NCBI GenBank assembly: GCA_044347615.1
Contig: JBIKUK010000003.1
Span: forward strand, 139,895-203,894
DNA from: Bdellovibrionota bacterium
GTDB taxonomy: Bacteria; Bdellovibrionota; UBA2428
Length of the DNA stretch: 64,000 nt
Direction: 5' to 3'
The notes under the pieces were generated by a model. That model had not been told where the DNA came from. It saw only the letters and a list, made by a program, of their open reading frames with translations, and searched no databases. Positions 5,067 through 46,000 of this stretch are shown here, piece after piece (position 1 is the stretch's first letter; each line of letters begins with the position of its first letter). The translations under genes were made by a program, and so were the position numbers.

Positions 5067-5849
5067 ATGACTCTTAAAGTTTTTACCCGATCAGGCCTAA
5101 GCCCTGAAGATTTTTTTGACTCACAAAAAAACGATAGCGCAAAAACACGGGCTGTTTTTACGATTGGAATTTCTGGATCTGGAAAATCTCACTGGTCTCG
5201 AATTGCTGAGCAAAACAATTGGAACGTTTTGAATTCCGACTCCATTCGTGTGGAATGGCTTAAGAAAGCCCAACTTGAAAATAAAAAAGTTCTGATCAAC
5301 GGACAACTCACCCTGCCCGACCCTCAAAATGAAGAGCATGTTTTTTGCCCTGAACTAAGAGCTCTTGTGATGGATAGCGATTACCTTCTTTCTCTTACAA
5401 AGCCTGAGCAGGCCGTTGTTTTTGATATCACAAACCTCACACTTCAAAGAGTTCCGCTTATGCTGAAAACAACTCTCAAAGGCTATGCAGTTGAAGCTCT
5501 TGTTTTTGCGCCCAACTCTCTGGAAGTGCATCAAAAAAACGTGTCGCTTCGAAAAAATGTTAAAAGTGGCTTGGGAGTTTCTGAAAAAGTTATCTCGGAT
5601 CTGTACAATACGTTTCAAGTTTTTTGCACAAACCTTAAAGCAAATCCTCAATCACAAATTATTAGCCAAGAAGAAATCAAAAAACTCTGCTCAACGTCTT
5701 TTGATTTTACTTTAATGAGAAAAAACCACGCTTCTTTTGAGGCTTTTTTATTGAGCCTCAGTCCTGAGCAAAAAGCATTCGCTCAAGAGCTCAGCCAAAA
5801 AGATATATTTAGTAAAATTGAATATGTCGACGTTCAAGAATTTATTTGA
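5067..5849 (+). CDS. P-loop kinase, T4 polynucleotide kinase-like (AAA_33 family)
   Basis: Walker A TIGISGSGKSHWSR followed by NVLNSDSIR resembles T4 Pnk kinase N-terminus TIGCPGSGKSTWAREF...NINRDDYR. Good RBS aggaga 8 nt upstream of ATG. Confidence 0.6.
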   Translation: MTLKVFTRSGLSPEDFFDSQKNDSAKTRAVFTIGISGSGKSHWSRIAEQNNWNVLNSDSIRVEWLKKAQLENKKVLINGQLTLPDPQNEEHVFCPELRALVMDSDYLLSLTKPEQAVVFDITNLTLQRVPLMLKTTLKGYAVEALVFAPNSLEVHQKNVSLRKNVKSGLGVSEKVISDLYNTFQVFCTNLKANPQSQIISQEEIKKLCSTSFDFTLMRKNHASFEAFLLSLSPEQKAFAQELSQKDIFSKIEYVDVQEFI

Positions 5850-5853
5850 AAAT

Positions 5854-6945
5854 CTAGATCCACAAAGATGCATCGCCATAAGAAAACAAGCGATAGTTTT
5901 TTGAAACCGCATATTGATAAGCTTCTTGTGCGAGCTTGAGCGATCCTCCAAAAACGCTCACCAACACAAAAAGAGATGATTGCGGCAAATGAAAATTAGT
6001 CATCAAAGCAGAAACTTTTTTGAATTCGTAACCTGGACGCACAAACAAACGGGTCTGACCTTGAACGAAATCCTCGCTAGGTGAAGATTTCCCTTGAAGA
6101 AAGTTCTTTAAATCCAAATCAGCTACCGTCTCGGTCAAACGGCAAGCCGTGGTTCCAATTGCTAAGACCTTTGAAGATTGCTGAATTTTTTGTGCCTCAG
6201 ACAAAAGCAATTCATAGGGCTCAGCATGTAATTGCGCCGCACTCAAATCATCTGTGCGCAAAGGCTCAAAAGTTCCCCGACCCACATGCAAATAAGTATC
6301 CGCAGATTGAATTTGCTGAGACTTTAACTGCTCCCATAGCTCATTTGTAAAATGCAAAGAAGCCGTAGGCGCTGCTGAACTCAGCGCGGGCCCTTGGGCC
6401 CACACAGGCTGGTAACGCTCACGATCGGCCTCTACGACATCGCGTTTGATATACGGAGGCAAAGGGATGCGTCCAAAACTCTCAATCCGAGCAACCGCCT
6501 CAAGAGAGGAAAAAGAAACTTCATCGGGACCACTCACGCACAAAATATCTTCACTGCCTTCGATTTTTAATTCTTCAGGGAATTTCAACTTTGCAACGTT
6601 CTTGATGAGCGCTTTCCAAGAAGTGGGAGAAAGTTTTTCCGTGAGAACAATTTCGTGGCGACTTCCTGTTTGTCTTTTGGCAAACAAACGCGCAGGCAAA
6701 ACGCGTGTGCGATTACGAACCCACAAATAGTCTTTTAAATAAGAATTCTGCGCAACAACGTGCGGAAGATCCGAAAACTTAAGATCTTCAAAACGAGGAA
6801 GTCCTCCCTCGGAATGGCGACGAACAATCAACAACCTGGATTCATCTCGCCGATCACTCGGAAAATGCGCGATAGAAGACTCCTCAAAATTATACGAGTA
6901 CTCGGCCAAGGAATTTGGCAAATCCGAAAAAGTCGCCTTTGTCAT
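5854..6945 (-). CDS. queA: S-adenosylmethionine:tRNA ribosyltransferase-isomerase
   Basis: DESRLLIV, RNRTRVLPARLF, GRIPLPPYIKR are QueA hallmarks. Start placed at internal MTKATF (6945) rather than ORF-table start 7005, which would overlap the next gene. Confidence 0.85.
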   Translation of the reverse strand: MTKATFSDLPNSLAEYSYNFEESSIAHFPSDRRDESRLLIVRRHSEGGLPRFEDLKFSDLPHVVAQNSYLKDYLWVRNRTRVLPARLFAKRQTGSRHEIVLTEKLSPTSWKALIKNVAKLKFPEELKIEGSEDILCVSGPDEVSFSSLEAVARIESFGRIPLPPYIKRDVVEADRERYQPVWAQGPALSSAAPTASLHFTNELWEQLKSQQIQSADTYLHVGRGTFEPLRTDDLSAAQLHAEPYELLLSEAQKIQQSSKVLAIGTTACRLTETVADLDLKNFLQGKSSPSEDFVQGQTRLFVRPGYEFKKVSALMTNFHLPQSSLFVLVSVFGGSLKLAQEAYQYAVSKNYRLFSYGDASLWI

Positions 6946-8350: not shown

Positions 8351-9526
8351 GTGCGTTTGCGTATTTGTTTTTGGATTTTTATTTTTTCTTTGCTGAGCTG
8401 TCAGCGCGCAGAAAAAAATCTCAGCGTAGATTCCATCTACAAAAAAATAATTTCTCACAAAAGTATAACGGTCGAAGAAGCTCTCAAAGTTATTTCCCCC
8501 GAACTCAAAACTTATTTCACTCTCAAATTTGATTCCGATAGCATGCAAGGGGCCTCCCCCACTCACCCTCGAGCCATCACATCAAACGCCGAGGGAACGC
8601 TCTACATGAGTTTCAATGGTCACCCCGACCAAGACGAATATCACTCGCTTGAATTTTTGGAATACAAAAACGACGCTGTTTTACTTTCATCTATTCAATT
8701 TGATCCTGAAGGCAAAAAACTTCCCACACTTTTTCGCCCAGGCCCGCAGGATTCTTGCTTGAGCTGCCACAGAGGCATCGATCAAACAATCATACCCCTA
8801 TGGGAACCTTACGTTGGAACTCGAGACAAAGAGATGGATGTCGAGGGAGCGTATCGCGGACACAGGGTAGACAAAGCCTTCACCCAAAACCCCGAGGCCC
8901 TTAAGCAAGAAAAGAATCTGCAAGATTTTTTAAAGAGTGCCCCTCAACACCCTCGCTACCAAAAACTCACTCACTTAGTTTCAAGTTACAAGATCAATTC
9001 TCAAGATGATCAATCAGCAAACCTTCACAACACACTCATGAACTATCGCATTCAGCGCCTGATGGCTGACCAGCTCGCTCGAACGCTCCTCAAGCGCCCA
9101 AATTACCAAGCTATGAAGTTTGATCTTTTGGGTGCCGCCTTGGGATGCAAGGGTGTTCAAGCGCCCGTGGATTTTCGCACCCTCACAAGCGAAATTCATA
9201 TGACGAACATGGACATAACGGATCGCTTTGCCCAAAATCCTTTAGGTGCACGCTTTTTTAATACCGAGATTCTCGCGGCTTACTTGGCCCACTACGACCC
9301 TCGCCTTCAGCCCCTTTTGCCTGTGTTGTGGATAAGCCCCAAACAAGCTCCTCAAGCCTTCTTTGATGTGGCAAAACTACTCCCCTCAAGCCTCCAAACA
9401 ATCGATCAAATAAGTGTGCTGCCGCCCATTCCTGTGCTCAAAATCCTCTTCCAAGAAGGACGTTTTGTCTTGGATCGCACGACTCCCTGTGAGACGCTCC
9501 ATAAGCTTGTAAAAGCTGCGAATTAG
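8351..9526 (+). CDS. hypothetical lipoprotein with single CXXCH motif
   Basis: Lipobox LLSC. Internal DSCLSCHRG is a CXXCH heme-c-binding-type motif. Otherwise no recognisable domain. Confidence 0.55.
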   Translation: MRLRICFWIFIFSLLSCQRAEKNLSVDSIYKKIISHKSITVEEALKVISPELKTYFTLKFDSDSMQGASPTHPRAITSNAEGTLYMSFNGHPDQDEYHSLEFLEYKNDAVLLSSIQFDPEGKKLPTLFRPGPQDSCLSCHRGIDQTIIPLWEPYVGTRDKEMDVEGAYRGHRVDKAFTQNPEALKQEKNLQDFLKSAPQHPRYQKLTHLVSSYKINSQDDQSANLHNTLMNYRIQRLMADQLARTLLKRPNYQAMKFDLLGAALGCKGVQAPVDFRTLTSEIHMTNMDITDRFAQNPLGARFFNTEILAAYLAHYDPRLQPLLPVLWISPKQAPQAFFDVAKLLPSSLQTIDQISVLPPIPVLKILFQEGRFVLDRTTPCETLHKLVKAAN

Positions 9527-9600
9527 CCTCTTTTCGTCTTGACCAAGACCACATTCTGGTTGATGTTAGGAGGACATTTTAGGAACTATAAGGAAGAGCT

Positions 9601-10014
9601 ATGTCCACTGAAAAAGTAGAAAAAACTGAGAAAAAAACAAAGAAATCAGCAGCCCCCAAAGTTAAAACAACTAAAAACTGGAAAGCTCCTCTTGAGTTTC
9701 CTTATGCGGTTCTTCGTACGGGCTCCAAACAATATTGCGTTTCAAAAGGCGATCAGATTTTAGTTGAAAAACTAAATCTTGAGCCTGGAAGTTCTTGGAC
9801 TGCAGAAGAAGTTCTCTTCGTGGCTCAAAGTCCTGGAAAAATTCAAGTTGGAAAACCAACACTCGCAGGAGCGAAAGTGAAATGCGAAGTTCTTCAACAA
9901 ACACTCGACGGAAAGATTTTAATCCGTCACAGCCGTCGTCGCCAAAGCTCACAAAAAACTTTGGGACATCGTCAACCTCTCACACGTTTGCTCGTGACTG
10001 AGATTGTTGCTTAG
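9601..10014 (+). CDS. rplU: 50S ribosomal protein L21 with lysine-rich N-terminal extension
   Basis: YAVLRTGSKQYCVSKGDQILVEKL matches the L21 core YAVIKTGGKQYKV. C-terminal GHRQPLTRLLVTEI. RBS ggaag upstream. Confidence 0.9.
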   Translation: MSTEKVEKTEKKTKKSAAPKVKTTKNWKAPLEFPYAVLRTGSKQYCVSKGDQILVEKLNLEPGSSWTAEEVLFVAQSPGKIQVGKPTLAGAKVKCEVLQQTLDGKILIRHSRRRQSSQKTLGHRQPLTRLLVTEIVA

Positions 10015-11606: not shown

Positions 11607-12230
11607 ATGTTAATAAGACCTTTCAGACCTCTCGTTACTCACACATTCATCCTTAGCAGCTTGTTTTCAATAGGCGTTAGGGCTTCCGAACTTTTGCACA
11701 AAACGGGAGTCGGAACCCGAGGCACATCCTCAACTCACAAGGAAGAAAACTTATACGAAAAATTTCAAATTTTTAACGATATATTTCCCCAATCTTCTTC
11801 TGAGATCGGCTTAGACAATGGATACATCGTTAAACTTTCTTTTGAAGCCTATCTAAATTCCATAGAAAAATTTAACAGAAAAACTCCCATCAAAAATGGT
11901 GATCCAAGTGTCAAGAAATGGATTCTTGAGAAAAAAGAAATTTTAAAAGAAAAAATTTATAATAGCTCATGGGTCGTAAAAGAATACAAAACATACAACA
12001 CCAACGAATTTAAACAAAAAAATAAATTTAAAGTATCCTACTCAAACGGTATCTATACTCTCTCAATTAATAAAGATGCTGAAGAAAATCCTGTGGACAT
12101 AAAGAACAATATCATTCAAGCCCTTGCCGTTATTTTAAAAACTGAAGAAACAGAATTTACAGTTGAAGAAATTACAAAAGAACTTTTGAAATCAATTATT
12201 CCGCTCAAAATAGAACCAAATGAGTTGTAA
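11607..12230 (+). CDS. hypothetical secreted K/N-rich protein
   Basis: Signal-peptide-like N-terminus. Very AT-rich, lysine/asparagine-rich body. No domain recognised. Flanked by long AT-rich intergenic regions. Confidence 0.45.
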   Translation: MLIRPFRPLVTHTFILSSLFSIGVRASELLHKTGVGTRGTSSTHKEENLYEKFQIFNDIFPQSSSEIGLDNGYIVKLSFEAYLNSIEKFNRKTPIKNGDPSVKKWILEKKEILKEKIYNSSWVVKEYKTYNTNEFKQKNKFKVSYSNGIYTLSINKDAEENPVDIKNNIIQALAVILKTEETEFTVEEITKELLKSIIPLKIEPNEL

Positions 12231-12232
12231 AA

Positions 12233-12430
12233 TTAAATTTTATCTTTAGGATGAACTGAAAGTTTTTTCTCTTCGCTTGAGGCAAAAGCACGGCGCGGAC
12301 GAAATGACTCTTGCTCGTCTTTTTCGAAAGAAACAGACGCAAGATTCATTAACAAACTTTTTGTTGCAAGCCCCACGGAACCTACAAAAACAAATACCCC
12401 AAGAATAAAAGCACCTAACTTCTTTCGCAT
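12233..12430 (-). CDS. small hypothetical membrane protein (65 aa)
   Basis: Single hydrophobic helix GAFILGVFVFVGSVGLA. Only ORF in a gap. Weak. Confidence 0.25.
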   Translation of the reverse strand: MRKKLGAFILGVFVFVGSVGLATKSLLMNLASVSFEKDEQESFRPRRAFASSEEKKLSVHPKDKI

Positions 12431-12570
12431 GTTCTTCTTATCGTAACTTTAAAGTAATAAAGGAATAATTAATTTATGGTTAATTTTGTGTTAAGACGCT
12501 CGTTTAACTCGCTTTTAAGCTAAAGCCATCCTAAGATAAAATCTTAACAAGAAAACGAGAACAAAAGACG

Positions 12571-22614: not shown

Positions 22615-23313
22615 ATGAACTTTGTTGATTGGGGTCGTATTGATTATTCAGAGGCTCTGATCAAACAAAAAGAATTGCTCCGGCAACGGCAGGAAAACCT
22701 CATACAAGACACTTTTGTTTTTTGTGAGCATCCTGCCGTGATTACTTTGGGTAGAGGAAAACCCAAACCCGGAGAGCTTCCCTTTTTTGCTCCTCCTCAT
22801 ATTCCCACAGTGAATGTGGAACGCGGTGGCCTTGCAACTTATCATGGGCCAGGGCAGCTTGTGTGCTATCCGATTGTACGCCTCGCTCCCAAAAGCGAAA
22901 CCAATTTTCCTGGTGGAATCGTTTGCTTTATTCGCTTGCTCGAAAACTGGATGATTGAAGTTCTCAAAAAATACGATGTCCCTGCTTGGTCGATCGATGG
23001 AAAAACAGGCGTATGGGTGGGCGAAAAAGTAGGAGACAAAAGTAGCTCTCGCAAAATCGCAAGCATTGGTGTGGCTGTGAGCCACTGGGTGACTTATCAC
23101 GGACTTGCTTTTAATTTTGATACCGGAAAAAACATTTGGACAAGCTTTAATCCCTGCGGACTTGCTGGAGATTTGATGACTGATCTTAAAAGCGAACTGA
23201 TTCGAAATCCTTCTTTAGAAAGTAAAAGAGAAAAACTCAGCTACAAAAAACTCAAAGAAGAATTCGTTGAAAGCTTTTCTTCTTCACTCACTTGCGGGCT
23301 CACGATCACTTGA
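22615..23313 (+). CDS. lipB: octanoyltransferase (lipoyl(octanoyl) transferase)
   Basis: EHPAVITLGRG, RGGLATYHGPGQLVCYPI, KIASIGVAVSHWVTYHGLAFN are LipB signatures. Confidence 0.85.
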   Translation: MNFVDWGRIDYSEALIKQKELLRQRQENLIQDTFVFCEHPAVITLGRGKPKPGELPFFAPPHIPTVNVERGGLATYHGPGQLVCYPIVRLAPKSETNFPGGIVCFIRLLENWMIEVLKKYDVPAWSIDGKTGVWVGEKVGDKSSSRKIASIGVAVSHWVTYHGLAFNFDTGKNIWTSFNPCGLAGDLMTDLKSELIRNPSLESKREKLSYKKLKEEFVESFSSSLTCGLTIT

Positions 23314-23319
23314 TTGTTC

Positions 23320-24978
23320 CTATTCCTCAATCTCTTTCATCCGACCCGACTCGCCCAATCCTTTTTTTACCCCTTTAGTTAAGCCCTTAAACCTTCCCTC
23401 CAGAGCCTTCTTAACGGGCTTAGGTAAAAGAACGTTAGAAGCTCCCGCAAAGACACTGTGGATAACACAAGCGCGATAATCGGCAACAAGTTGAGCTTGA
23501 GAAGATTGCTCGGGATTTTCAGCACAAGCTACATCTTTGCTCAAATGATCTTTATTTAATCCACTATCGGTGAGTTTATTTAAATCCTTAGAACACTTCT
23601 GATAGGCATCCAAACCTCCCTTACCTAAAGAAAATATATCAAAACTTAAAGCTGCTTGGCTTGCTATTTTAGCTCTACTTGCAACCTGGGGCATGACCGC
23701 AGCAACTTCAGCGGCTAGCTTTGATTGACGAGCAGCTAAAAAGGCCATTCTTCCATAAGAGGCATACGAACTTAATCCCATCGTCAAAACAACGAGCCCC
23801 GCATTTACAGCAAAACCAGAAATAGCATCACTTTGATTATCTCCAGCTTTTCGAACTTTTTGAAAACAATCCGCAGCAATCAAATGCGTCTGAACCTGTG
23901 CGTCTTCTTGAGTAAGACTAGCTCCATTATTAAATGCTTTAATATCAAGGGGAGGTAACTTTTTTAATACTTCATCAAAGCGGCCACACATACTCGTATG
24001 TCCATTCATACATTCAGTCGCCCCCTGCAACTCTTTAAGCTCACCCGAAATGACTTTTCGAGTTTCCTTCAATTGATTGACCAAAGCTTCTTTAAAATTA
24101 TTTTTTGATTGATTGAAGGTAGCATTAAAAACTTTTCCTTTTAAAGCTGGATACATCGCCTCTAGAAACTCTATTTGTTTTAATTTTTCTGTAATCTTTG
24201 TACCTCTTTCAACATTTTCTAAATTTCTCGAGGGTTGAGAAAGTGTAACAGGATTCGAAGCTAAAATTGAAGTAGTTTTCTGAGATCTTAAATCATCGAC
24301 TTCTTTTTTAAGATTTATGTATCCAGGATATATCTCCTCCAACTCTTTTACTTGTTTTTCTAAACCACCCTGAGGTTTACACACTTTTAGCTTCTCGCAT
24401 CCGCTTTGCGCCATCTTGTGAACCAAAGAAGAGCAGTTTTGATCATCAAGAGAACTTTCACCTAACACAGAATCAATAGCCTGCAAGCTTTCAAGAGAGG
24501 CAAGAGCTCCAACCTTAAGACGAGCCATGTTTGAATAATATTCTGCTATTAAAAAGTTTTCTCTTTTTGGATCATCTATATAATTAAGACATTGAAGATT
24601 AAGATGTTCTTGATTGTTACCTAGCTTTGTTAGGTTATGACCTGAAAGACTTTTAGAGAGCTGTGTTGAATTTGTTTCCTTAGATAAATATCTAACACTC
24701 TTCCCGCAGAAATCATCATAACTACCCTCTTTGGTTAAATTCCAATTTCTTATGCTCGAAGTGGCATCTTTATTAATTTTTTCAATAAGATGTTCTGGGC
24801 AAGCGGACTCAGTTCGAACTTTTTTTGCAGAACCGTACTCCTTTTCCTCATTATAGCGATACCCTCCTTCTAATTCGCTTGATTGCCCAGAAGAATGGAA
24901 GCTTTTGGCAAAAGTGTTTTTCTGAAAAAATACTAAAAAAAGAATCAAAGAAATTCTTAACAAGAAATACAAAGGCAC
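23320..24978 (-). CDS. secreted cysteine-rich protein, paralog B of tandem pair (unknown family)
   Basis: Signal peptide. ~45-50% identical by eye to the upstream paralog across its length (AEYYSNMARLKVGALASLESLQAIDSVLG, KLKVCKPQGGLEKQVKELEEIYPGY, GGLDAYQKCSKDLNKL, VADYRACVIHSVFAG). Confidence 0.6.
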   Translation of the reverse strand: MPLYFLLRISLILFLVFFQKNTFAKSFHSSGQSSELEGGYRYNEEKEYGSAKKVRTESACPEHLIEKINKDATSSIRNWNLTKEGSYDDFCGKSVRYLSKETNSTQLSKSLSGHNLTKLGNNQEHLNLQCLNYIDDPKRENFLIAEYYSNMARLKVGALASLESLQAIDSVLGESSLDDQNCSSLVHKMAQSGCEKLKVCKPQGGLEKQVKELEEIYPGYINLKKEVDDLRSQKTTSILASNPVTLSQPSRNLENVERGTKITEKLKQIEFLEAMYPALKGKVFNATFNQSKNNFKEALVNQLKETRKVISGELKELQGATECMNGHTSMCGRFDEVLKKLPPLDIKAFNNGASLTQEDAQVQTHLIAADCFQKVRKAGDNQSDAISGFAVNAGLVVLTMGLSSYASYGRMAFLAARQSKLAAEVAAVMPQVASRAKIASQAALSFDIFSLGKGGLDAYQKCSKDLNKLTDSGLNKDHLSKDVACAENPEQSSQAQLVADYRACVIHSVFAGASNVLLPKPVKKALEGRFKGLTKGVKKGLGESGRMKEIEE

Positions 24979-25054
24979 TTATAGTTTTTCGACCACCAAC
25001 ATAAAAAACCTTAAGATTAAAAAGTTAAATTTTTATTAACTTAAGATTAAAACT

Positions 25055-26803
25055 TTATTTACTTGCAGGCTCAAGCTTGATTGAGTCCTTAAGCATTTTT
25101 GACCTTTTGTTTTTAGCTTCTTTGCCTTTCTCTCTTGTTTGAGAAAAAGTGACAACACCTCTCCTCACAAGACCTATACCTCCTTTAAATGGCCCCTCAA
25201 CGTTTTCTCTCAAATTCGAAGGTATAACCATGCCCGCTACACCCGCCACAATACTCTTCGCAACACAAGAACGATAATTGGCCACAAGCTGAGGCTGCGA
25301 TGATGATTGAGCAAATTGAGACGGACAAAGCACATCTTCCTTAGATGTATTTTTTTTATATTTTTGGTTACTCAACTTGTTAAGTTCTTTTGAGCAATGA
25401 TTATATGCATCTACTCCATTTTTCCCTAGAGTGAACAAATCAAATCCTAAAACAGTTCTGCTTGCGACGGTTGCTTTTTGTGACAAATTTACGGCTGCAT
25501 CCAGAACAGCTGCTCTATTGGCAAAAGTTGAAAGAAAAACCGAATTTTCAATGGCAGAAACTGCGGCTTTACAGTACGAAGCATAAGCACTGATTCCAAT
25601 AGTCGTAAGCGCGAGTGTCGTGCCCAGCACAAAATCCTTAAAAGCTTCACTTTGGTTTTCATTTACTTTTCTAATATTTTGCCGACACTCCACAGCTCCT
25701 AGGTAAGCTTGAACTTGTCCATCTTCAAAAGACAGCTCATCCCCTCTATTAAAGTGCTCAATATTTAGAGGAGGCGTTTTATATAGAAGCTCATCAAAAC
25801 CTGCGCAACCACCCACTCCGCGCATACAATAAACACCCTCTTGATATTCTTTAAACTGCTCGAAGACTTTTACTCTACTTTTTTTGATTTGATTTTTTAT
25901 GGCTTCTAAAAAATTTTGTTTAGAAGGATCAAAAGTTTTTAAAAACTCTTTTCCCTTAAGTGTTGGATAAATTGATTCAAGTGCTTTTACTTTATTTTCA
26001 TTTTCTGCAGCTTTTTTTTCTCTTGCTGAAAATTCTAAAATTTTTTCTCTATGAGGCGTATAACCTGGCCCCATATTCACAACAGATAGAGTATTGGCAG
26101 ACCTCAAATCAGCAATTTCTTTTTTGAGGGTCATATACTGAGGATAAACATCCTGTAATTCTTGCGCTTGTAACGCGAGACCCCCTCTCGGCTCACAAGA
26201 CTTGAGCTTTTTGCAAGCCTGAATGACATAAGGCATTCCTTCACGAGGACACTCTACATCCGGGAGGCCTTTTTTCCCCAAAAGAGAATCAATAGCAGCC
26301 ATACTTTCGAGCGAAGCAACAGAGGCAATCCTGAGACGTGCCATATTAGAATAATACTCAGCCACTAAAAATTTTCTTCCAACTGGATCTTTCACTAAGT
26401 TGATACATCTTTCAGAAATATTTTTTTCGTTATTACCTAAAGCTGTTAGAGGATGTGAAAAAAGTCGATTTGAAAGTTCTGTTGCGTCCGGAGTTTCAAC
26501 TAATTTGGAAAGAGCATTTGTGCAATAATCATCCGAATTACCAATTTTTTTTCCATACCAATTCCTGACATTTACATTTGCATCGCCATCTATTCTTTCA
26601 ATCAAATCAAAAGGACACGAGTCCCAAGTCTTACTTTGGGTTTTTAAATACTCACCCTCTTCTTGAGCAGAAAGCTTGATTCTTAATTCCTGAGAATCTT
26701 CAAAAGTTGGATGAATATTTTTTGCAAAAGCTGACCCTTCCCAAAAAAAGATACTTAAATAAAAAATCCCCGAAAAAAATGGGATTAAAAAATCTAAATG
26801 CAC
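25055..26803 (-). CDS. secreted cysteine-rich protein, paralog A of tandem pair (unknown family)
   Basis: Signal peptide. Conserved blocks AEYYSNMARLRIASVASLESMAAIDSLLG, KLKSCEPRGGLALQAQELQDVYPQY, NGVDAYNHCSKELNKL, VANYRSCVAKSIVAG shared with 23320..24978. Confidence 0.6.
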   Translation of the reverse strand: MHLDFLIPFFSGIFYLSIFFWEGSAFAKNIHPTFEDSQELRIKLSAQEEGEYLKTQSKTWDSCPFDLIERIDGDANVNVRNWYGKKIGNSDDYCTNALSKLVETPDATELSNRLFSHPLTALGNNEKNISERCINLVKDPVGRKFLVAEYYSNMARLRIASVASLESMAAIDSLLGKKGLPDVECPREGMPYVIQACKKLKSCEPRGGLALQAQELQDVYPQYMTLKKEIADLRSANTLSVVNMGPGYTPHREKILEFSAREKKAAENENKVKALESIYPTLKGKEFLKTFDPSKQNFLEAIKNQIKKSRVKVFEQFKEYQEGVYCMRGVGGCAGFDELLYKTPPLNIEHFNRGDELSFEDGQVQAYLGAVECRQNIRKVNENQSEAFKDFVLGTTLALTTIGISAYASYCKAAVSAIENSVFLSTFANRAAVLDAAVNLSQKATVASRTVLGFDLFTLGKNGVDAYNHCSKELNKLSNQKYKKNTSKEDVLCPSQFAQSSSQPQLVANYRSCVAKSIVAGVAGMVIPSNLRENVEGPFKGGIGLVRRGVVTFSQTREKGKEAKNKRSKMLKDSIKLEPASK

Positions 26804-26861
26804 TTTTATGTTTTTCGTAAAAAAAAGAACTAAGCTTTAAATATTAATTTAAAGTTAAGGA

Positions 26862-27887
26862 CTATCCAAAATCACCTTGTTCAATTTGAGTTTTGCCATT
26901 TTGTAGATGGTATATTTTGGCAAACTTTTTTAACTTTAAATTGATAATCAAAACAGAATCCAAAGAAGGTCTTGTGCGAAGGCTAAACTCATAAGCAATG
27001 CGATGAATCGCTTGTGGATAAAAGTCTCCCTCGTGCATTCCTTCATTTACAAAATACTCAGGAATTTCTCCTTCAATAAACAAAACCGCACTCAATTCCA
27101 CTCGCTCAGTTAATCGAGTTAAAGCAAAGTCAGCTTTACGAAAAGCAGATTTTACTCCCGCAACAACATTGTAACTTGATCCTATTCGCTTCACTTCACG
27201 AAAAGCTAAAATCTTTCCGGTCTCGGGATCGCTCAATCTCAAATCCATACTTTTACTAGCTTGTTTTTCATCCAAACGAGAAAAAAATCCTTTTGGAGGC
27301 TCAAAAGCTACGCGAACATTCATCGAGCGCAAAACACTCAACGCATAAGCTCCTTCGTAGAGACGATAATTTAATTCTGTTGGCCGATTGGTCGTTAAAA
27401 ACTTAATCCACGACTCGTAGTTTTCTATTCCCACCTTCAAATGAAAGCGTTCAAGGGCTGCAAATATCTTTTCAGCCCATGCTTTTTTGATTGGGTCCGA
27501 TAAGGATTTTAAAATTGTTTCGTAACTACTTTTGAGATCTGAATGCAGTAAAGTCTCTTGAGGATCTTTTAAAAAATTAAACTCAAGCTGGCGAGGCAAA
27601 GCATTTTCTTCATTCACCTCATCGCTAGCCTTAGAGAGCTCAGTTTTAGAAGTCTCAGATTTAACAGGAAAAGCTTTTTTTGAAATATAACTGTAATTAA
27701 AAACTGGCTGCCCAGAAGAATCTAAAGTTAAATCCTCTAAACGATGTAAAACGTCTTGAACTTCAAGTGGAGACAGGTAGATTTCACTAATTTTTTGTCT
27801 GAGAACCTCTCTACAAGCAGCATAAGACTTAAGACTACCCCCCAAAAACAGAAGCCAAAAATAAGCTATTAACCATCGCTTGATCAT
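26862..27887 (-). CDS. hypothetical secreted protein, first gene of the three-gene minus-strand cluster
   Basis: Signal peptide MIKRWLIAYFWLLFLGGSLKSYAA. 59-bp gap to next gene. No domain recognised. Confidence 0.5.
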   Translation of the reverse strand: MIKRWLIAYFWLLFLGGSLKSYAACREVLRQKISEIYLSPLEVQDVLHRLEDLTLDSSGQPVFNYSYISKKAFPVKSETSKTELSKASDEVNEENALPRQLEFNFLKDPQETLLHSDLKSSYETILKSLSDPIKKAWAEKIFAALERFHLKVGIENYESWIKFLTTNRPTELNYRLYEGAYALSVLRSMNVRVAFEPPKGFFSRLDEKQASKSMDLRLSDPETGKILAFREVKRIGSSYNVVAGVKSAFRKADFALTRLTERVELSAVLFIEGEIPEYFVNEGMHEGDFYPQAIHRIAYEFSLRTRPSLDSVLIINLKLKKFAKIYHLQNGKTQIEQGDFG

Positions 27888-28059
27888 TTTTTGAACATTT
27901 CCACCCTGCGTTCAAACACACCGAACACCGTGCCTCAATAAATAAAATATTGGTTGTCGCAAAGCAATATTCTTGATTCTAAGGCCCGTACAAGCCCCAT
28001 GAACACTTCCTCTATAAAAGAGGCTTGTCAAAGGTAGAGAATGTGGCTTTTATAGAGGC

Positions 28060-29806: not shown

Positions 29807-31651
29807 TTAAAGCTCAGACCAGTAAGATTGCTGCAAACGAGCCTGAATTTCGAAAAACTCTAAGCCGCTAAGATAGGGAATTTTTTGATGAAAGCCATAA
29901 AGCCGAGCATTTGATTTTGGAGAATAGGAAAGATCCAAAACCTTTTGAATGTTTGTAAAGGGGGGTAAAGGAGCTTCATCTCCAGCGGCCCATAAAAGAA
30001 ATGGACGCTCTAAACTTTGCCCTTTTTTCTTTAAACATACATTTTGCGAAGCCGAAAAAAGCTGCACATTCTCAAGCAAATCAAAAGCTTGCTCAGCTAT
30101 AGCGCCAGAGCCCCATATGATCCACGAGGTCTCTTGACTTGAATGATTGCTTGAAAAATCGGCAATTATTTTTTTTAGAGCAGCTATATCCGTATTTGCT
30201 CTTTTCCAGACCGTTTTTTGTGAATCTGTCTGGATTTTAAAAAGCGTATTATGAACCTCGCTTGAGTTCGCATCTAAAGGAATTGAATTTTTGAGCAAAA
30301 CCTCATGTTTTTTAAGCGGACTTGTCACCGCAAAAGCACACGCACCAAGGTCATCTAAAAAAGAAAAAGTTTTTTCAATCAACTCTTCTTTTGAAAGAGG
30401 AATCGCATAAAAATTCATGTGCTTTTTTTTAAAAAACTCATCATGAAAGGTTGGCGAATAAGAATGGAGAACAGGGTCGCCCAAAATCGCAGCAAAGCGT
30501 GTAGACTCGCTTGTAGAATCAACCTGACAAGACCACTGGCAAAGTGTGGGTTGATCCGCCAAGCCCTCTCGACCCTCTCGTAAAAAATTAAGCTTTTGCT
30601 TGCCCTTCATAAAAAGACGAAACCATTGCCACTTGGGAAAGCTTACAAAAGCATTTGGATTCTTTGTTGAAGGACTTCGAGGAAAAATATTTTTTCTCGA
30701 AGGATTTTCTAGCCACCACTTATAAAGAATCTCTAACTCTTCGAAAGAAGAAATCTCTGGAGCTGCCTTCAATTGAATATCTGAATTTTGTTCTATAAAA
30801 GCCTCTAAGCTCTGAAGATCTTTTGCTAAAGACTCCCTTAAATAATGAAGCGAAAAATAAGAAACATTAAGACCTGAAGGAGGCAACCCCAAGTGAATAT
30901 CCCAATCAGATAAAACATTAGGCAAAGAAAAAATTTCAGAATTAACCTTTTCAACTTTTCTAAAACTTAAAAGAAAACGCACCTTGGAAAACTTCAAAAC
31001 AAGCTTTTTTATTTCTTCAAAATTTTTTTCAAAACTCCAAAGATCATTGCGTAATTCAAAAACTAAATTCCACGCTTTCTTTGCGTCGATAACTTGCTCC
31101 AAATCCCGATGAGATTCCGGAAACAAAGTCAAAACACTTTCATTTTCAAATTTTAATTCATTAAAAATCCACCGTACTGGAACTTGTGCCGACAAAAGAT
31201 CCTCTCCTTCACGCAAAGTCCATACGCAATCAGCTTTTGATCGATAACGGAGCTCCCGTTCTTGAAAATTTTTTGCAAAATTTACTGGATCAGAAGTTCC
31301 CACCAAAGGACGATCTAGGAAATATCTTGGAAATTGATCTGAATCTCGCTGAAGCCACAGCGACTTAAAATTTTCTGGCCAAAAACTCGCACAATAACCT
31401 GCCCCCACAACAATCATTGCCGAAGCCTCGTTCTTTAACTCATTATTTAATTCCCTAAGAATCTTTTCTTCTAAAGCTCTAAAGCCTGCTTCTCCTTCTT
31501 GCTGGAAGATATCCGTAATTTTCTTATGGCTTCGCTTTTCGATTTCAGCATCTAAATCAAAAGTTTTTGAAAAAAGATGGCCATAGCGCTTCAAAAAAGA
31601 AGTCTTTCCTACACCACGATGCCCAATAATGAGCCATTTCTCATTGACCAC
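29807..31651 (-). CDS. multidomain shikimate-pathway fusion: shikimate kinase (N) - ~200-aa middle region (possibly degenerate type I dehydroquinase) - shikimate dehydrogenase (C)
   Basis: N-terminus IIGHRGVGKTSF...ITDIFQQEGEAGFRALEEK is AroK-like. C-terminal part from AAILGDPVLHSYSPTFHDE carries the AroE GxxGxPIxHSxSPxxHN signature. Middle region not confidently assigned. Confidence 0.7.
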   Translation of the reverse strand: MVNEKWLIIGHRGVGKTSFLKRYGHLFSKTFDLDAEIEKRSHKKITDIFQQEGEAGFRALEEKILRELNNELKNEASAMIVVGAGYCASFWPENFKSLWLQRDSDQFPRYFLDRPLVGTSDPVNFAKNFQERELRYRSKADCVWTLREGEDLLSAQVPVRWIFNELKFENESVLTLFPESHRDLEQVIDAKKAWNLVFELRNDLWSFEKNFEEIKKLVLKFSKVRFLLSFRKVEKVNSEIFSLPNVLSDWDIHLGLPPSGLNVSYFSLHYLRESLAKDLQSLEAFIEQNSDIQLKAAPEISSFEELEILYKWWLENPSRKNIFPRSPSTKNPNAFVSFPKWQWFRLFMKGKQKLNFLREGREGLADQPTLCQWSCQVDSTSESTRFAAILGDPVLHSYSPTFHDEFFKKKHMNFYAIPLSKEELIEKTFSFLDDLGACAFAVTSPLKKHEVLLKNSIPLDANSSEVHNTLFKIQTDSQKTVWKRANTDIAALKKIIADFSSNHSSQETSWIIWGSGAIAEQAFDLLENVQLFSASQNVCLKKKGQSLERPFLLWAAGDEAPLPPFTNIQKVLDLSYSPKSNARLYGFHQKIPYLSGLEFFEIQARLQQSYWSEL

Positions 31652-42007: not shown

Positions 42008-45000
42008 ATGTACTTTATGGCATATCAACGAGGGTGGAAAAAATGCTTCTTAACTTTGATACTTCTTTTGGGCTTTGGCGCAGCGACATCAAGTTTCGCG
42101 GCCAAAGAAGATTACTTCAGTGACCATCCAGCAATTGAACAAGAGCTAAAGGCAAAACTTGTCGTTTCTTTTGTGAAATTGAAAGAAATCTGCCTGAAGG
42201 CAATGGATCCTCAAGTAGATTATCTAACCGAGGAAGAAGTCTTCAAGGCACAAGAATACCTCACTCGAATCAAACAATACAAATTTGAATTCCTTGCTCA
42301 CCTCGTTAAAGATCACGCCTATTCTTTGCGAAAATATTTTCCCGATCTTTATCAGATTAAAAAAACGCCCGCTAAAAGCAGATTCTTTTTTCGCTACACG
42401 ACTCTTCTGACTTTTTACTACAGCGCTCTTGCAGAATTAGGAATTGCTCAAGACGTTCCTTTTATCGAAGCAGAAGCCGACGAGTTCGTTCACCTACAAA
42501 AGCATTTCAAGACGAAGCACGCTTTTGTTCACGATGATAGCAAGAAAGCTTACGACTCCCTTCTCAACAAATTGCATTACGCTATTCGAATTTCAGAAAA
42601 CAAAACAAATAAAGCTCGATACATAACTGAAATTTCAGATCCTGATCATCCTGATTTCATGCCTATCTCAAAAGCTCAAAACTTTTTAGAAGCAACTGGA
42701 GATAGCAGACTTGCAAAAGTAGATGCTCTCAACCCCGATCACTTCTCTCCTCAACAGATCGAAATTTTTCGCGCTGCTATTCAAGGCAATGCAATCGGAC
42801 AACAAGATGCCGAAGATGCTTTTGCTCGAATGGAAACAAAACGTCTCCTAGGTGCTACCGACGGCAAGCCTCAAAAGGTATGGCTCATGGGCCCCACTGC
42901 TACAGGTAAAGATGCCTATACTCACGCCTTTGCTTCTGCCATCAATATTGGCAAAAGTGCCAGTGAAGCAGATCATGTCTTTGAATTACCCGTTGTCCAC
43001 AATGAAGGTGATTTGAGTACAATCACGGGCTCATCTACTGGATACGTTGGATCAAATGCACAATCGCGCTTCGTTCACTTTCTCGTAAATCACTCGGGTG
43101 GCAAATATCACATCGACTTAGACGATACAGGAAAAGAAATCGTCTTGGATGGTCCTCACCCCGAACACGAGGGAGCTACCTTTAAGCCAAGTCAGGCAGT
43201 TGTTTTTATCAACAAAATTGACCAATGGTCTTCTGAGTTCATTGATAAAATTTTGATTGATCTTGTTTCAAAAGGAAAAATGGTTATCCGAGCGCCTGGA
43301 CAAGATGGTCTTGCTGAAATTCAAGTGCCCGTAAATATCGTCGTAGCTTCTCAACACGGAAGTGAAATCATTTTTCCTGACGACCGTGAAGGAAAAGAAG
43401 TGACTCTCAAACAAGCTCTCTTGAACTACGATACAGCCCGCAAAGACAAGTCTAAGCTACGTAACGCCATCGAAAGAAGAGGCGCCCTAAGGCTTGATCG
43501 ACCAGACGAAAGACCTCGAAGTGTTCCGTCTGATTTCACAAACCTTTTTTCAAACGAAGAGCTTGTTCTCTTTAAGCCTCATGATGAAGAAATTTTAAAA
43601 GAAATCACCCGTAGAAAAATTCAGGCAAAAATTAAAACCTATCAGGGAATTCAAAAATACTTGGGGCAAGCAAACTTTGAAATCCTCCCAGAAACGGTAG
43701 CCTATATTTCAAAGTTTAAACGTAAACTCATCGATGGAGCGAAAGGAATAGATTCGATCATTGATGATTTTATCGAAAAGCCAATCCTTACGGCTCTTCA
43801 AAATGGTGAGCTCAAAGATGAAGGTCCAACGGGAAGAACTTATGTCCTCGGAATTGTAGAGGACAAAGAAAGCCACATTGTTCTTCAAATAAAAACTCGT
43901 GATCCCAAAAACGAGGGAGCCTTCCTCGAAGATCAGACAAAAAACATTTACGTCAGAACAGTCGAAACGCCTCCAGACCTATTCAGTGAAGCTGAAAAAG
44001 TAAAATTTGAAAATTTTGAAAAGAATTTTTCAAAACATATTTTCGGCTTTCAAGAACTAGGAAAGCAATTCTCAAAAGCACTTTATCTAAGCGAAGCTCT
44101 AAGCCGAAGAAGTAGCATTGGAAAAGCAAGACGCTTTATGGAATTGGGTCTTTCTGCAACAGGAAAAACTCAAACTGCAAAAGAAGTGAATCGCTTTTAC
44201 TACGGAGAAGATGCTCAACTTGAAATGATCGACTTCAACAACGTTAACCATAAACAAGACGTTCAAGACTTACTCTACGGTCGAAGAGGCGAAGGCCCCA
44301 GTCCGTTCATGAAAGCTTACGATAAAAATAACGGAAAAGTTTTGATCCTCCTGGACGAAATCGCCAACGTCAGAGACATCAACGCTCTCGTCCCTCTTTA
44401 CCAATTGCTAGACGAAGCAAAGGTAACTGGATTTAACGATAACGTTCCTCGTTTAATGGAAAACGTTACTTTCATTCTCACAGGTAACGCTACGGAAGAA
44501 ATCTATCGAGTGATTATGAGAAGCATCCCTGAAGAAATTCAGCGCCAGGCTCAAATCGATATCTACAAAAGATTCAATAACGACCCTCAATACAAGAGAG
44601 CCGTTTTAGAATCGCACTTTCGCCAAGCATTCCTTAACCGATTTCCACCCGAAAATATCGTTATCTTCCCGCCCTTGAGCCACGAAGCTTTGCGCGAACT
44701 TGTGCACTCAAAGATTGGAATTTTTGAAAAAGGAATCACCGAAAACCTCAAGTCCAGAAAGATCGAACTCCAATTTGAAAGCCCTGAAAATTTTGAAAAA
44801 TTTGTAGAAGCTATCGAATGGGCAGCTTTTGATGTGTGGGTACAAGGTCGCTCCATTGAAGCTTTCGTGAACGAAACTCTTGATGCAGACATTCTTGTTG
44901 CCTTGAAAAGCCTTCATCTTAAAGACGGAGAGCCCGTAATTTTGAAATTTATCGAAACAAGAGAAACCGACACTCACGACTCAAAACGTCGCGATATTAT

Positions 45001-46000
45001 TCTAGCTCTTGAACATGCTGGGGAGTCTCAAACCATTCAAGTTCAAGGAAAGAAAGTTCTTTCGCGAGTCAGTGACACAAAAGTAGCGCGCTTGATTACC
45101 GGCGCTCACGAAGCTGGACACGAGATTGCCAGAAGAGCTCTTTCTCGTGAATTCACTAAATCTAAAAAAGTCAGTATCATTCCTGGAGTTGCAGAAATTG
45201 CAGGGGAATACATTTATTACGCTGGAGTTGCTTCCTGGGAAGAAATCGCTAAAACATGCGGCACTCGAAATGACATGCTCGCTCAAATGGCAGAACTCAT
45301 TGCGGGTGGCGAAGCTGGTCGTATGGTAACAGTCGGAAATGTTTCAGAACATGGCCAAAGTAACGACTTGGAACGTACGAACGCTATTGCTGAAATCATG
45401 ATCCTCAAATGGGGTCTTGAAGGCAGCTGGGGCTTTGAAGGTCCAGGGCGTGGAGAAACGGTTAACCAATACTTAAATCGACTCTCACCTGAGCAACGAC
45501 GTAAACTTGAACTTGCTAAAGCAAATGTAATTCAAGAAGCGACAGATATAGCTCAAGAGGTTTTAAAAGATAACCGAGAAACTCTCTTTGCCTTTGGTCG
45601 CGAAGTCACTCGCTTAGGAGAAGTTGACTCTGCGGCGATTGAGAAATTTTTCTCAGAGCACGAAGTTGCAGATTACTGGAGTAAACCCAAAAAAGGCCGC
45701 GTGGCTCAAGCTTTCAAAAAAGTTTTTGATTGGACTAAAAAACTTCGTGAAGCAAAAGCCCCCAGTACTCGAACTCCTATTCTTGTAAAAGAATTTGTAG
45801 CAGATGTCGAAAAAGCAGAAGTTGCTAAGATCGAGGATATTCTTTCTGAAAGAAAAGCAGCAGAAATTGCTCACATCAAAGTCCCCTCGCATCTTAAGTA
45901 TAAGAGCCAGCAAGAAAGCAACTCTAAGACCTCTTGGGCGCTTGCAGTTGTGCCTCAAACACAAATTTCTGCAAATTGCTTAACCTTGTTGCGAAGATAA
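42008..46000 (+). CDS. 1330-aa signal-peptide protein with two tandem ClpA/B-D2-type (AAA_2) ATPase modules and a C-terminal FtsH-like M41 zinc metalloprotease domain
   Basis: Module 1 resembles Clp D2: GPTATGKD (Walker A with D instead of S/T), TGYVGSNAQSRF (cf. ClpB GAPPGYVGYEEGG), VVFINKIDQW (Walker B DE replaced by NK). Module 2 aligns residue-for-residue with ClpB D2: GLSATGKTQTAKEV...MIDFNNVNHKQDVQDLLYG...VLILLDEIANV...LLDEAKVTG...NVTFILTGN. C-terminus RLITGAHEAGHEIARRAL...KVSIIPGVAEIAGEY...GQSNDLERTNAIAEIMILKWGL matches FtsH M41 (HEAGHA...KVTIIPRG...GASND...A..MV..WG). N-terminal hydrophobic signal CFLTLILLLGFGAATSSFAA. Confidence 0.8.
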   Translation: MYFMAYQRGWKKCFLTLILLLGFGAATSSFAAKEDYFSDHPAIEQELKAKLVVSFVKLKEICLKAMDPQVDYLTEEEVFKAQEYLTRIKQYKFEFLAHLVKDHAYSLRKYFPDLYQIKKTPAKSRFFFRYTTLLTFYYSALAELGIAQDVPFIEAEADEFVHLQKHFKTKHAFVHDDSKKAYDSLLNKLHYAIRISENKTNKARYITEISDPDHPDFMPISKAQNFLEATGDSRLAKVDALNPDHFSPQQIEIFRAAIQGNAIGQQDAEDAFARMETKRLLGATDGKPQKVWLMGPTATGKDAYTHAFASAINIGKSASEADHVFELPVVHNEGDLSTITGSSTGYVGSNAQSRFVHFLVNHSGGKYHIDLDDTGKEIVLDGPHPEHEGATFKPSQAVVFINKIDQWSSEFIDKILIDLVSKGKMVIRAPGQDGLAEIQVPVNIVVASQHGSEIIFPDDREGKEVTLKQALLNYDTARKDKSKLRNAIERRGALRLDRPDERPRSVPSDFTNLFSNEELVLFKPHDEEILKEITRRKIQAKIKTYQGIQKYLGQANFEILPETVAYISKFKRKLIDGAKGIDSIIDDFIEKPILTALQNGELKDEGPTGRTYVLGIVEDKESHIVLQIKTRDPKNEGAFLEDQTKNIYVRTVETPPDLFSEAEKVKFENFEKNFSKHIFGFQELGKQFSKALYLSEALSRRSSIGKARRFMELGLSATGKTQTAKEVNRFYYGEDAQLEMIDFNNVNHKQDVQDLLYGRRGEGPSPFMKAYDKNNGKVLILLDEIANVRDINALVPLYQLLDEAKVTGFNDNVPRLMENVTFILTGNATEEIYRVIMRSIPEEIQRQAQIDIYKRFNNDPQYKRAVLESHFRQAFLNRFPPENIVIFPPLSHEALRELVHSKIGIFEKGITENLKSRKIELQFESPENFEKFVEAIEWAAFDVWVQGRSIEAFVNETLDADILVALKSLHLKDGEPVILKFIETRETDTHDSKRRDIILALEHAGESQTIQVQGKKVLSRVSDTKVARLITGAHEAGHEIARRALSREFTKSKKVSIIPGVAEIAGEYIYYAGVASWEEIAKTCGTRNDMLAQMAELIAGGEAGRMVTVGNVSEHGQSNDLERTNAIAEIMILKWGLEGSWGFEGPGRGETVNQYLNRLSPEQRRKLELAKANVIQEATDIAQEVLKDNRETLFAFGREVTRLGEVDSAAIEKFFSEHEVADYWSKPKKGRVAQAFKKVFDWTKKLREAKAPSTRTPILVKEFVADVEKAEVAKIEDILSERKAAEIAHIKVPSHLKYKSQQESNSKTSWALAVVPQTQISANCLTLLRR

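Follow-up and report, generated by a model that had tools for sequence, protein, structure and literature searches.

What are the two large cysteine-rich proteins encoded in tandem in this genome, and do they form a unit with the exported protein encoded beside them? The genes lie in a stretch of 64,000 nt (the window) of contig JBIKUK010000003.1 of a Bdellovibrionota bacterium (assembly GCA_044347615.1). They are designated here A, B and C in the direction of transcription. An initial annotation of the locus had described them as a cluster of secreted proteins, with B and C as paralogs of no recognisable family, and the three minus-strand open reading frames (ORFs) that it listed were all present (Table 1). 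Comparison with databases indicated that B and C are not orphans but part of a sizeable family, in which they appear as the minimal, tail-less form of a module of about 470 residues.

The paralogy of B and C was clear. They aligned from end to end in BLASTP (41% identity, 61% positives, E 4e-142), and the five sequence blocks reported as shared were all found in both. At the DNA level, blastn returned a single segment of 107 bp at 75%, and the remainder had diverged. This ruled out an assembly duplication, which the initial annotation had named as a possible refutation, and showed B and C to be old paralogs. The available orthologues have a protein identity of at most 71% and are saturated at synonymous sites.

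B contains 13 cysteines and C contains 12, of which 12 positions are common to both (63, 94, 133, 185, 197, 203, 326, 333, 373, 470, 493 and 513 in B numbering). The positional conservation claimed for these cysteines extended well beyond the pair. All 12 were kept in 15 close relatives, and the same 12 were at least 90% conserved in 47 distant relatives at about 20% identity, far beyond chance. In an alignment of 171 sequences anchored on a hidden Markov model, the nine core cysteines (185, 197, 203, 326, 333, 373, 470, 493 and 513) were 87-99% conserved. C185 and C197 were lost jointly in 15 of 18 cases. This joint loss implied a disulfide between the two.

Neither protein had a match in Pfam, NCBIfam, PADLOC, PHROG or the PDB, the last searched both by phmmer and by profile. 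The only stray matches were to Rad50, from coiled-coil bias (26.7 bits, where the cutoff is 700), and to CsgG, below threshold. A literature search did not find a description of the family. In the libraries searched, the module matches no described family, in line with its earlier description as uncharacterised.

A word-indexed search of 5.8 billion proteins yielded only 14 relatives. A profile of these was used in an exhaustive HMMER search of 1.84 billion representative proteins. In it, 264 representative clusters passed E<=1e-3, of which 154 also passed E<=1e-10 and 20 passed E<=1e-30. The organism labels were nearly all Bdellovibrionota, Bdellovibrionales, Halobacteriovoraceae or Bacteriovoracaceae, and a few read only 'bacterium'. 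There were two exceptions, a metagenome-assembled genome (MAG) labelled 'Pseudomonadota bacterium', and a 'Poribacteria' bin that fell in the same 90% cluster as a Bdellovibrionota MAG. These labels agreed with the supposed lineage of the window, which itself matched a Lake Mendota Bdellovibrionota MAG at 100%. Members have so far been found in metagenomic genomes only.

The module is N-terminal in the family, with a median start at residue 84, and in most relatives it directly follows the signal peptide and precedes a C-terminal extension. The extension has a median length of 315 aa and is longer than 200 aa in 107 of 156 members. The extensions vary rapidly, are poor in cysteine (0.4%, versus 2.4% in the module) and are heterogeneous: BLAST linked one group of 37 members, and the others fell into many small groups and singletons. 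Recognizable domains in them were sporadic and adhesin-like (PEGA, Big_9, Cadherin_5 and ALTTAQ repeats). In B and C, the place of the extension is taken by a short tail, which is rich in lysine and arginine in both, as had been described.

Two features of the relatives were recorded in passing. A motif of about 70 aa without a Pfam match (AHxVGxGExGxDG…IGNYTxxQLRRKxxILRxAGFSxxQRRxLMExGVVG) occurs in the extensions of the distant members P0139, P0109, P0101, P0164, P0061, P0145 and P0054, twice in P0061. It often precedes arrays of repeats of about 20 aa, L(T/S)xxQxxxLG, and it is absent from B and C. In the distant members P0032, P0035 and P0046, a small cysteine motif (C-x3-4-GG-x6-9-C-x-C) directly after the signal peptide replaces the C63/C94/C133 region of B and C.

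A constant N-module with varying C-termini recalls two known designs. In the MAT (mosaic adhesive trimer) fibres of B. bacteriovorus, the N-terminal domain is beta-rich and measures about 130 aa, the shafts are trimeric beta-helices or beta-prisms, and the variable C-terminal region is proposed to project for prey recognition (PMC10769870). Both are predator families with many paralogs, a signal peptide, an invariant N-module lacking a PDB homologue and a highly variable C-terminus. On the other hand, the B/C module is all-alpha, with about 470 aa and 12 conserved cysteines; the two are not related in sequence, and B and C have no variable tip. We therefore rejected membership of the MAT superfamily on the contrast between the all-alpha model of B and the beta-rich MAT domain. 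By analogy, the wider B/C family may be said to follow the MAT design logic on an unrelated all-alpha scaffold.

The other design is that of polymorphic toxins, in which a conserved N-terminal trafficking region is joined to variable C-terminal toxin domains of known families and an immunity gene lies alongside. This candidate was rejected, as no known toxin domain was found in the 47+8 members scanned. In the neighborhoods examined, there was no recurrent small gene of the immunity type downstream of B-family genes. B and C, unlike polymorphic toxins, have no C-terminal domain at all.

Signal peptides had been proposed for all three proteins. We judged them by eye from hydropathy, charge and AxA-type sites (slash, cleavage: SAFA/K in B, TFA/K in C and SYA/AC in A). 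The N-termini were signal-like with suitable sites, in line with the proposal; the N-region of B fitted it less well, containing neither K nor R, although its orthologues have a basic residue there. B and C were rejected as lipoproteins, because their first cysteine does not occur before residue 60 and a lipobox is thus absent.

An AlphaFold2 model of B was built from a 15-sequence alignment. At a confidence (pLDDT) of about 80, it covered residues 60-388 only, as an all-alpha structure with helices of 30-40 residues. The hydrophobic stretch that had been noticed near residue 400 was located in both proteins and found to be conserved family-wide, as a semi-hydrophobic helix rich in small residues. 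Its hydropathy score KD19 had a median of 1.53 in the family and was at least 1.6 in 34% of members (1.66 in C). A second, weaker hydrophobic segment at about residues 512-530 was also conserved.

These two segments could be read as transmembrane (TM) helices, in which case B and C would be inner-membrane-anchored periplasmic proteins serving the biogenesis of the cell's own envelope. The conservation of both segments across the family, the hydropathy of the first in C and in a third of the members, and the failure of AlphaFold2 to pack this region against the soluble domain would be consistent with this. To estimate insertion, sums on the Hessa translocon scale were taken; the scale was used without position terms, and the sums are rough and indicative only. 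For the first helix they were +2.8 kcal/mol in B and +3.2 in C (family minimum +1.4, median about +4), positive in every member, and for the second segment the median was +9.6. Classic TM anchoring was rejected on these unfavourable energetics. The segments are unlike stop-transfer anchors, and anchoring would place the conserved C470 and C493 in the cytoplasm; on both grounds, export in soluble form was preferred to insertion as an integral membrane protein. The restriction of the family to one phylum and its flux in copy number are also unlike core envelope machinery. We consider membrane anchoring highly improbable.

A different role for the same helix would be in pore formation. B and C would then pair up as the two subunits of a pore former or translocator built of alpha-helices, like the bipartite XaxAB/YaxAB toxins or the translocator pairs of type III secretion systems. 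The disulfide-locked bundle would hide the helix and insert it in prey membranes, and in the long relatives the module would carry the C-terminus across. The resemblance to ClyA-family toxins (XaxAB, YaxAB, SmhABC and AhlABC) lies in the side-by-side diverged paralogs, the long helical bundles and the hydrophobic element, here a small-residue helix kept throughout the family. At this locus a copy of the B type never stands without one of another subtype, and two or three subtypes occur together in four related genomes. An N-module with a variable tail also resembles translocation-domain toxins. ClyA-family structures recurred among the best Foldseek matches, none of them significant (E >=0.13, TM-score <=0.15).

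On the other hand, the helix is much less hydrophobic than the hairpins of known pore formers, to judge from its KD19 and its rough, positive insertion sums. The B/C module is also larger and rich in cysteine, and 12 cysteines are atypical of ClyA-type toxins. Subtypes were not found together among the distant members, most of which are single genes with long tails. This made a pore-forming pair unlikely.

A related reading takes the module to be a previously unrecognised device for effector delivery or membrane insertion, acting as a binary pair (B with C, or B with the long type) and having a nuclease A as one client. On prey contact, the disulfide-locked bundle would unmask the small-residue helix and move the variable C-termini into or across the prey envelope. 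We regard this as very unlikely.

Could the module be an enzyme? Residues conserved family-wide include Y150, Y151, R156, D172, G176, P280, W281, G284, F287, Q305, R310, R378, T401, G403 and D455. Among these, the polar R156, D172, Q305, R310, R378 and D455 might suit an enzyme acting, for instance, on lipids or peptidoglycan and of the helical type seen in Lipocone/CapCone-2 effectors. CapCone-2 effectors of Bdellovibrionota are secreted helical proteins encoded next to a second secreted effector in two-gene systems, and the mark of the Lipocone clade is a His in H2, in the active site, together with an Asp in H4 (PMC12419801). B and C share with CapCone-2 the phylum, a helical build with predicted secretion and a neighbouring gene for a second protein of the secreted type, and differ in size and cysteine pattern. 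There was no His or Ser/Asp pattern of the catalytic type, and no column among the 156 distant members reached 70% His. Membership of the Lipocone/CapCone-2 group was rejected on this absence. The module, at about 470 aa, also exceeds the five-helix Lipocone core, and no enzyme family in Pfam or the PDB matched it. An enzymatic module is exceedingly improbable.

We interpreted B and C, with moderate confidence, to be Sec-exported, disulfide-stapled, non-enzymatic scaffold proteins of helical build that belong to the envelope or secretome of the predator. Outside the cytoplasm, the module would form a rigid scaffold of helices, stabilised by some six disulfides, and through its semi-hydrophobic helix it would associate peripherally or conditionally with a membrane or with a partner. 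B and C would then serve as a structural or adhesive component, and in the wider family the same module would carry the variable C-terminal regions, with their repeats and occasional adhesin-type domains. From the taxonomy and the architecture we infer that the family may act in prey interaction.

Several points weigh against this interpretation. Export was read from the N-termini by eye, and that of B lacks the basic residue. Residues 389-582 of B were helical and unplaced in the model (pLDDT <50), and no fold match pointed to a function of the module. Predatory use was deduced from taxonomy only, and the source organisms are uncultured MAGs. Being tail-less, B and C cannot 'present' anything, and the scaffold idea is weakest for just these two genes.

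Protein A proved to be of a different kind. It had no relevant match in Pfam, NCBIfam, PADLOC or PHROGs, and a profile search of the PDB gave just a chance match to bL33. Among the 5.8 billion proteins its family was very small, with eight matches by single sequence and 13 by profile. Its C-terminal 235 residues are extremely conserved, and an AlphaFold2 model gave pLDDT 73-89 over most of residues 105-341, with lower values at about 200-211 and at 270-290. The modelled elements were a helix (169-188), three strands (192-195, 213-219 and 226-235), a helix (238-258) and a strand (264-271). These make up the alpha-beta-beta-beta-alpha-beta core of restriction-endonuclease-like proteins.

The invariant residues fell on this core. 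D215 begins strand 213-219, E231-V-K233 lies within strand 226-235, and E178 is on the preceding helix. Besides E178, D215, E231 and K233, the residues E196, D253, E264 and E272 were invariant in the 13 homologues. On the model, A likely has a PD-(D/E)xK fold in the canonical arrangement. Nuclease activity, as predicted from the candidate D…ExK motif, stands at about an even chance. The statement that no recognisable family is represented at this locus thus held for all three proteins at the sequence level, but not for A at the level of the fold.

A was set beside the PD-(D/E)xK nucleases NucC (6p7p), NgoMIV (1fiu), CdiA-CT EC869 (4g6u) and HamA (8vxy). It showed no sequence-profile similarity to any Pfam or PDB family and differs from these nucleases in having a Sec-type signal peptide, an N-terminal linker of about 80 aa and one invariant cysteine. 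It is also a standalone gene, neither a toxin tip nor a defence effector, and had no PADLOC match. The invariant Cys25 lies one to three residues past the predicted cleavage site across the homologues. A was rejected as a lipoprotein, because manual inspection of eight homologues found YAA, HAS, FAA, STG, SSG, AND and AEN at positions -3 to -1, with no L, V or I at -3 and with D or N at -1 in two of them; there was no lipobox ([LVI][ASTVI][GAS]C).

B. bacteriovorus has multiple, redundant secreted nucleases with signal peptides, Bd0934, Bd3507, Bd1244 and Bd1934 (PMC7925074, PMC3593177). They are a plausible functional analogue of the predicted nuclease A, likened by description and not by homology. 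A is probably a separate, lineage-restricted exported hydrolase of the PD-(D/E)xK fold, presumably a nuclease, and, if the model is right, a new, very small exported branch of this well-known fold.

This left the question of whether the three genes form one unit. The initial annotation had proposed one operon convergent on lipB, with spacers of 59 and 77 bp. The close same-strand spacing was confirmed, at measured values of 58 nt (A-B) and 76 nt (B-C). C does converge on a lipB-like gene (22615-23313), 6 nt from its end, and that gene forms the end of a lipA and pyruvate/2-oxoacid dehydrogenase block. The opposite flank contains ubiE, chorismate synthase and a shikimate kinase/dehydrogenase fusion. 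The Pfam labels of these flanking housekeeping genes were taken from syntenic relatives.

Four related genomes hold B-family genes between ubiE and lipB, with variable contents. Compared with A-B-C in the window, GCA_041443065 has A-B-C-C', and the loci L006, L007 and L008 have A-long-B. In the locus L002 the order is long-B-C, and the contig breaks off within the long gene. A neighbor-joining tree resolved three ortholog lineages, the B type, the C type and a long type with 550-600 extra residues. The duplications are therefore older than these species, and copies are gained and lost at one locus.

If the triad were one functional operon, A would act as an effector with nuclease activity that B and C would carry, chaperone or help to deliver, possibly by a link through Cys25 of A. 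The common strand, the short spacers and the lack of a terminator-like hairpin in either spacer would suit this, as would the order of A followed by a B-family gene, kept in at least three related genomes. The cysteines may also be counted in its favour: A has a single invariant one adjoining its cleavage site, and nine of the 12 in B and C, an odd number, precede the hydrophobic helix.

The adjacency, on the other hand, was seen in close relatives only, where the housekeeping flanks are also collinear, and so it carries little functional weight. Elsewhere the genes occur apart. Divergent A homologues (306-311 aa, 46-55% identity) stand alone between guaB-guaA and a sigma-54 activator, with no B-family gene. 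Distant B-family genes stand alone in unrelated neighborhoods without an A-like neighbor. Two neighbors resembling A in outline, with a length of about 340 aa, a signal peptide and a cysteine near the N-terminus (L013_346 and L012_334), were rejected as having no homology to it. The check in related genomes that the initial annotation had called for thus did not bear out the cluster as a conserved unit. Taken with the difference in upstream elements described below, this left a single functional A-B-C operon quite unlikely; it is a possible reading of the locus and not the best-supported one. In the interpretation favoured here, A would be an independent exported hydrolase, plausibly one more among the predators' redundant secreted nucleases, that adjoins B and C with no obligate link.

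Some details of these neighborhoods are given for their own sake. The second A-like lineage was found at L011:3771-4697 and on the contigs of P0181 and P0184. One of the guaBA-adjacent homologues came from the lake sample 3300042561, the same sample as the MAG matching the window at 100%. In L013, the B-family protein P0040 (606 aa) is flanked by two exported proteins without Pfam match, one of 577 aa with nine cysteines (5086-6819) and one of 346 aa with a single cysteine right after the signal peptide (8818-9858). The start of the latter overlaps the stop codon of P0040, and neither flanker is related to A, B or C.

The upstream regions distinguished the genes further. Every B-family gene of this clade keeps a module that opens with TTAAC-N6-TTAAC (11-bp period) and, after 7-8 nt, has TTTAAAG; a T-rich tract of about 22 nt then leads to (T)ACGAAAA, and the GTG start lies 6-8 nt further on. 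Copies in relatives are at L002:1314-1343, L004:32-63, L005:1028-1057, and L006:6514-6545 and 9940-9969. A degenerate form of the pattern occurred once in the window, upstream of C (0.01 expected by chance), and in eight related loci it occurred upstream of B-family genes only. No Shine-Dalgarno sequence was evident by eye in the B-family leaders. The module looks like a shared promoter or a binding site of the response-regulator type, duplicated along with the genes.

A does not have this module but is preceded, in the intergenic region shared with the divergent ubiE, by a block of 22 nt whose sequence is unchanged from genome to genome, although the A proteins are no more than about 70% identical. 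The block might serve A or ubiE as an operator or as part of a leader. As each of them has a conserved element and a GTG start of its own, B and C probably share their regulation and not simply a transcript. A promoter may lie before each of the two, and A is probably regulated separately. The separate elements made the 'one operon' part of the earlier proposal doubtful.

The only other TTAAC-repeat cluster in the window (12432-12520: TTAAC-N6-TTAAC-N6-TTAAT … TTTAAAG-TTACGA … ATG) precedes a minus-strand ORF of 65 aa at 12233-12430. Its product begins MRKKLGAFILGVFVFVGSVGLATK and has a signal- or anchor-like N-terminus. From its position behind the cluster, this ORF may belong to the same regulon.

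Table 1. Features of the A-B-C locus, in window coordinates
Feature	Position	Strand	Description
Gene A	26862-27887	minus	341 aa, ATG start; exported-type protein, unrelated to B and C
Gene B	25055-26803	minus	582 aa, GTG start; B-type member of the 12-Cys helical module family; database protein P0001 identical
Gene C	23320-24978	minus	552 aa, GTG start; C-type paralog of B
B residues 1-27, signal-peptide-like N-terminus (…GSAFA/KN)	26723-26803	minus	hydropathy; h-region and (S/A)F(A/S)/K site conserved in orthologues
B residues 60-530, 12-Cys all-alpha module	25214-26626	minus	AlphaFold2 helices, Cys conservation; profile matches cover about 140-525 in 264 clusters
B residues 389-411, conserved semi-hydrophobic helix rich in small residues (GLTxATxGLGSxA)	25571-25639	minus	hydropathy, family alignment
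B residues 535-582, short basic C-terminal tail	25058-25201	minus	occupies the place of the relatives' long variable extensions
C residues 1-24, signal-peptide-like N-terminus (…KNTFA/KS)	24907-24978	minus	alignment with B, hydropathy
C residues 383-405, counterpart of the semi-hydrophobic helix of B	23764-23832	minus	hydropathy, family alignment
A residues 1-23, signal-peptide-like N-terminus	27819-27887	minus	Cys25 invariant, two residues past the predicted SYA/A cleavage site
A residues ~105-341, highly conserved domain, likely PD-(D/E)xK (restriction-endonuclease-like) fold	26865-27575	minus	AlphaFold2 model
A D215 … E231-V-K233, candidate for the catalytic D…ExK motif, spread over consecutive strands	27189-27245	minus	invariant in 13 members
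Upstream module of C	24979-25039	minus	TTAAT-N6-TTAAC, CTTAAG, T-rich tract, CGAAAAAC, GTG start
Upstream module of B	26804-26858	minus	TTAAC-N6-TTAAT, TTTAAAG, T-rich tract, ACGAAAAAC, GTG start; lacks 7 nt relative to orthologues
22-nt block GGTGTTCGGTGTGTTTGAACGC upstream of A, between A and the divergent ubiE	27908-27929	minus	also in L003, L006, L007 and L008

A foreign origin of the locus was considered and rejected on two counts. The GC and third-position GC (GC3) contents of A, B and C are about 1-1.7 standard deviations under the mean of the ORFs in the window, and other ORFs are equally low; this did not single the genes out as a genomic island or as horizontally transferred. A mobile-element origin was likewise dropped, as tblastn against phage and plasmid collections gave no match. 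No promoter of the FliA (sigma-28) type was found in the window, and an Rfam and tRNA scan of it gave no match.

Three other ORFs of the window were recorded. The fused aro gene adjoining chorismate synthase (29807-31651, minus) encodes 614 aa, and its syntenic homologues comprise shikimate kinase and the N-terminal domain of shikimate dehydrogenase. An unusually long protein of 1330 aa (42008-46000, plus) has an AAA domain at about 710-880 and a Peptidase_M41 domain (FtsH-type) at about 1027-1196, and its N-terminal 700 residues or so had no domain match. An ORF of 207 aa (11607-12230, plus), with a signal-peptide-like N-terminus, no Pfam match and a GC content of 0.324, among the lowest in the window, is a further candidate for a lineage-specific exported protein.

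The overall kind of B and C is familiar, that of a predator's lineage-specific exported modular proteins, in which the N-module stays constant and the tails vary. Predators like Bdellovibrio are studied as living antibiotics, and most of their exported proteins lack a known role. These results do not overturn the current understanding, but supply testable targets. Two 'hypothetical proteins' now belong to a defined domain family of at least 264 clusters, with 12 near-invariant cysteines, a constant N-module and varying C-termini, and this family offers concrete candidates for functions in prey contact or in the envelope. The A family adds a new, very narrow group of proteins with predicted Sec export and a predicted PD-(D/E)xK fold. 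The conserved TTAAC direct-repeat element may define a small regulon. The redundancy of the predators' nucleases has made the degradation of prey DNA hard to dissect genetically, and an A-type protein could be a further member of that set.

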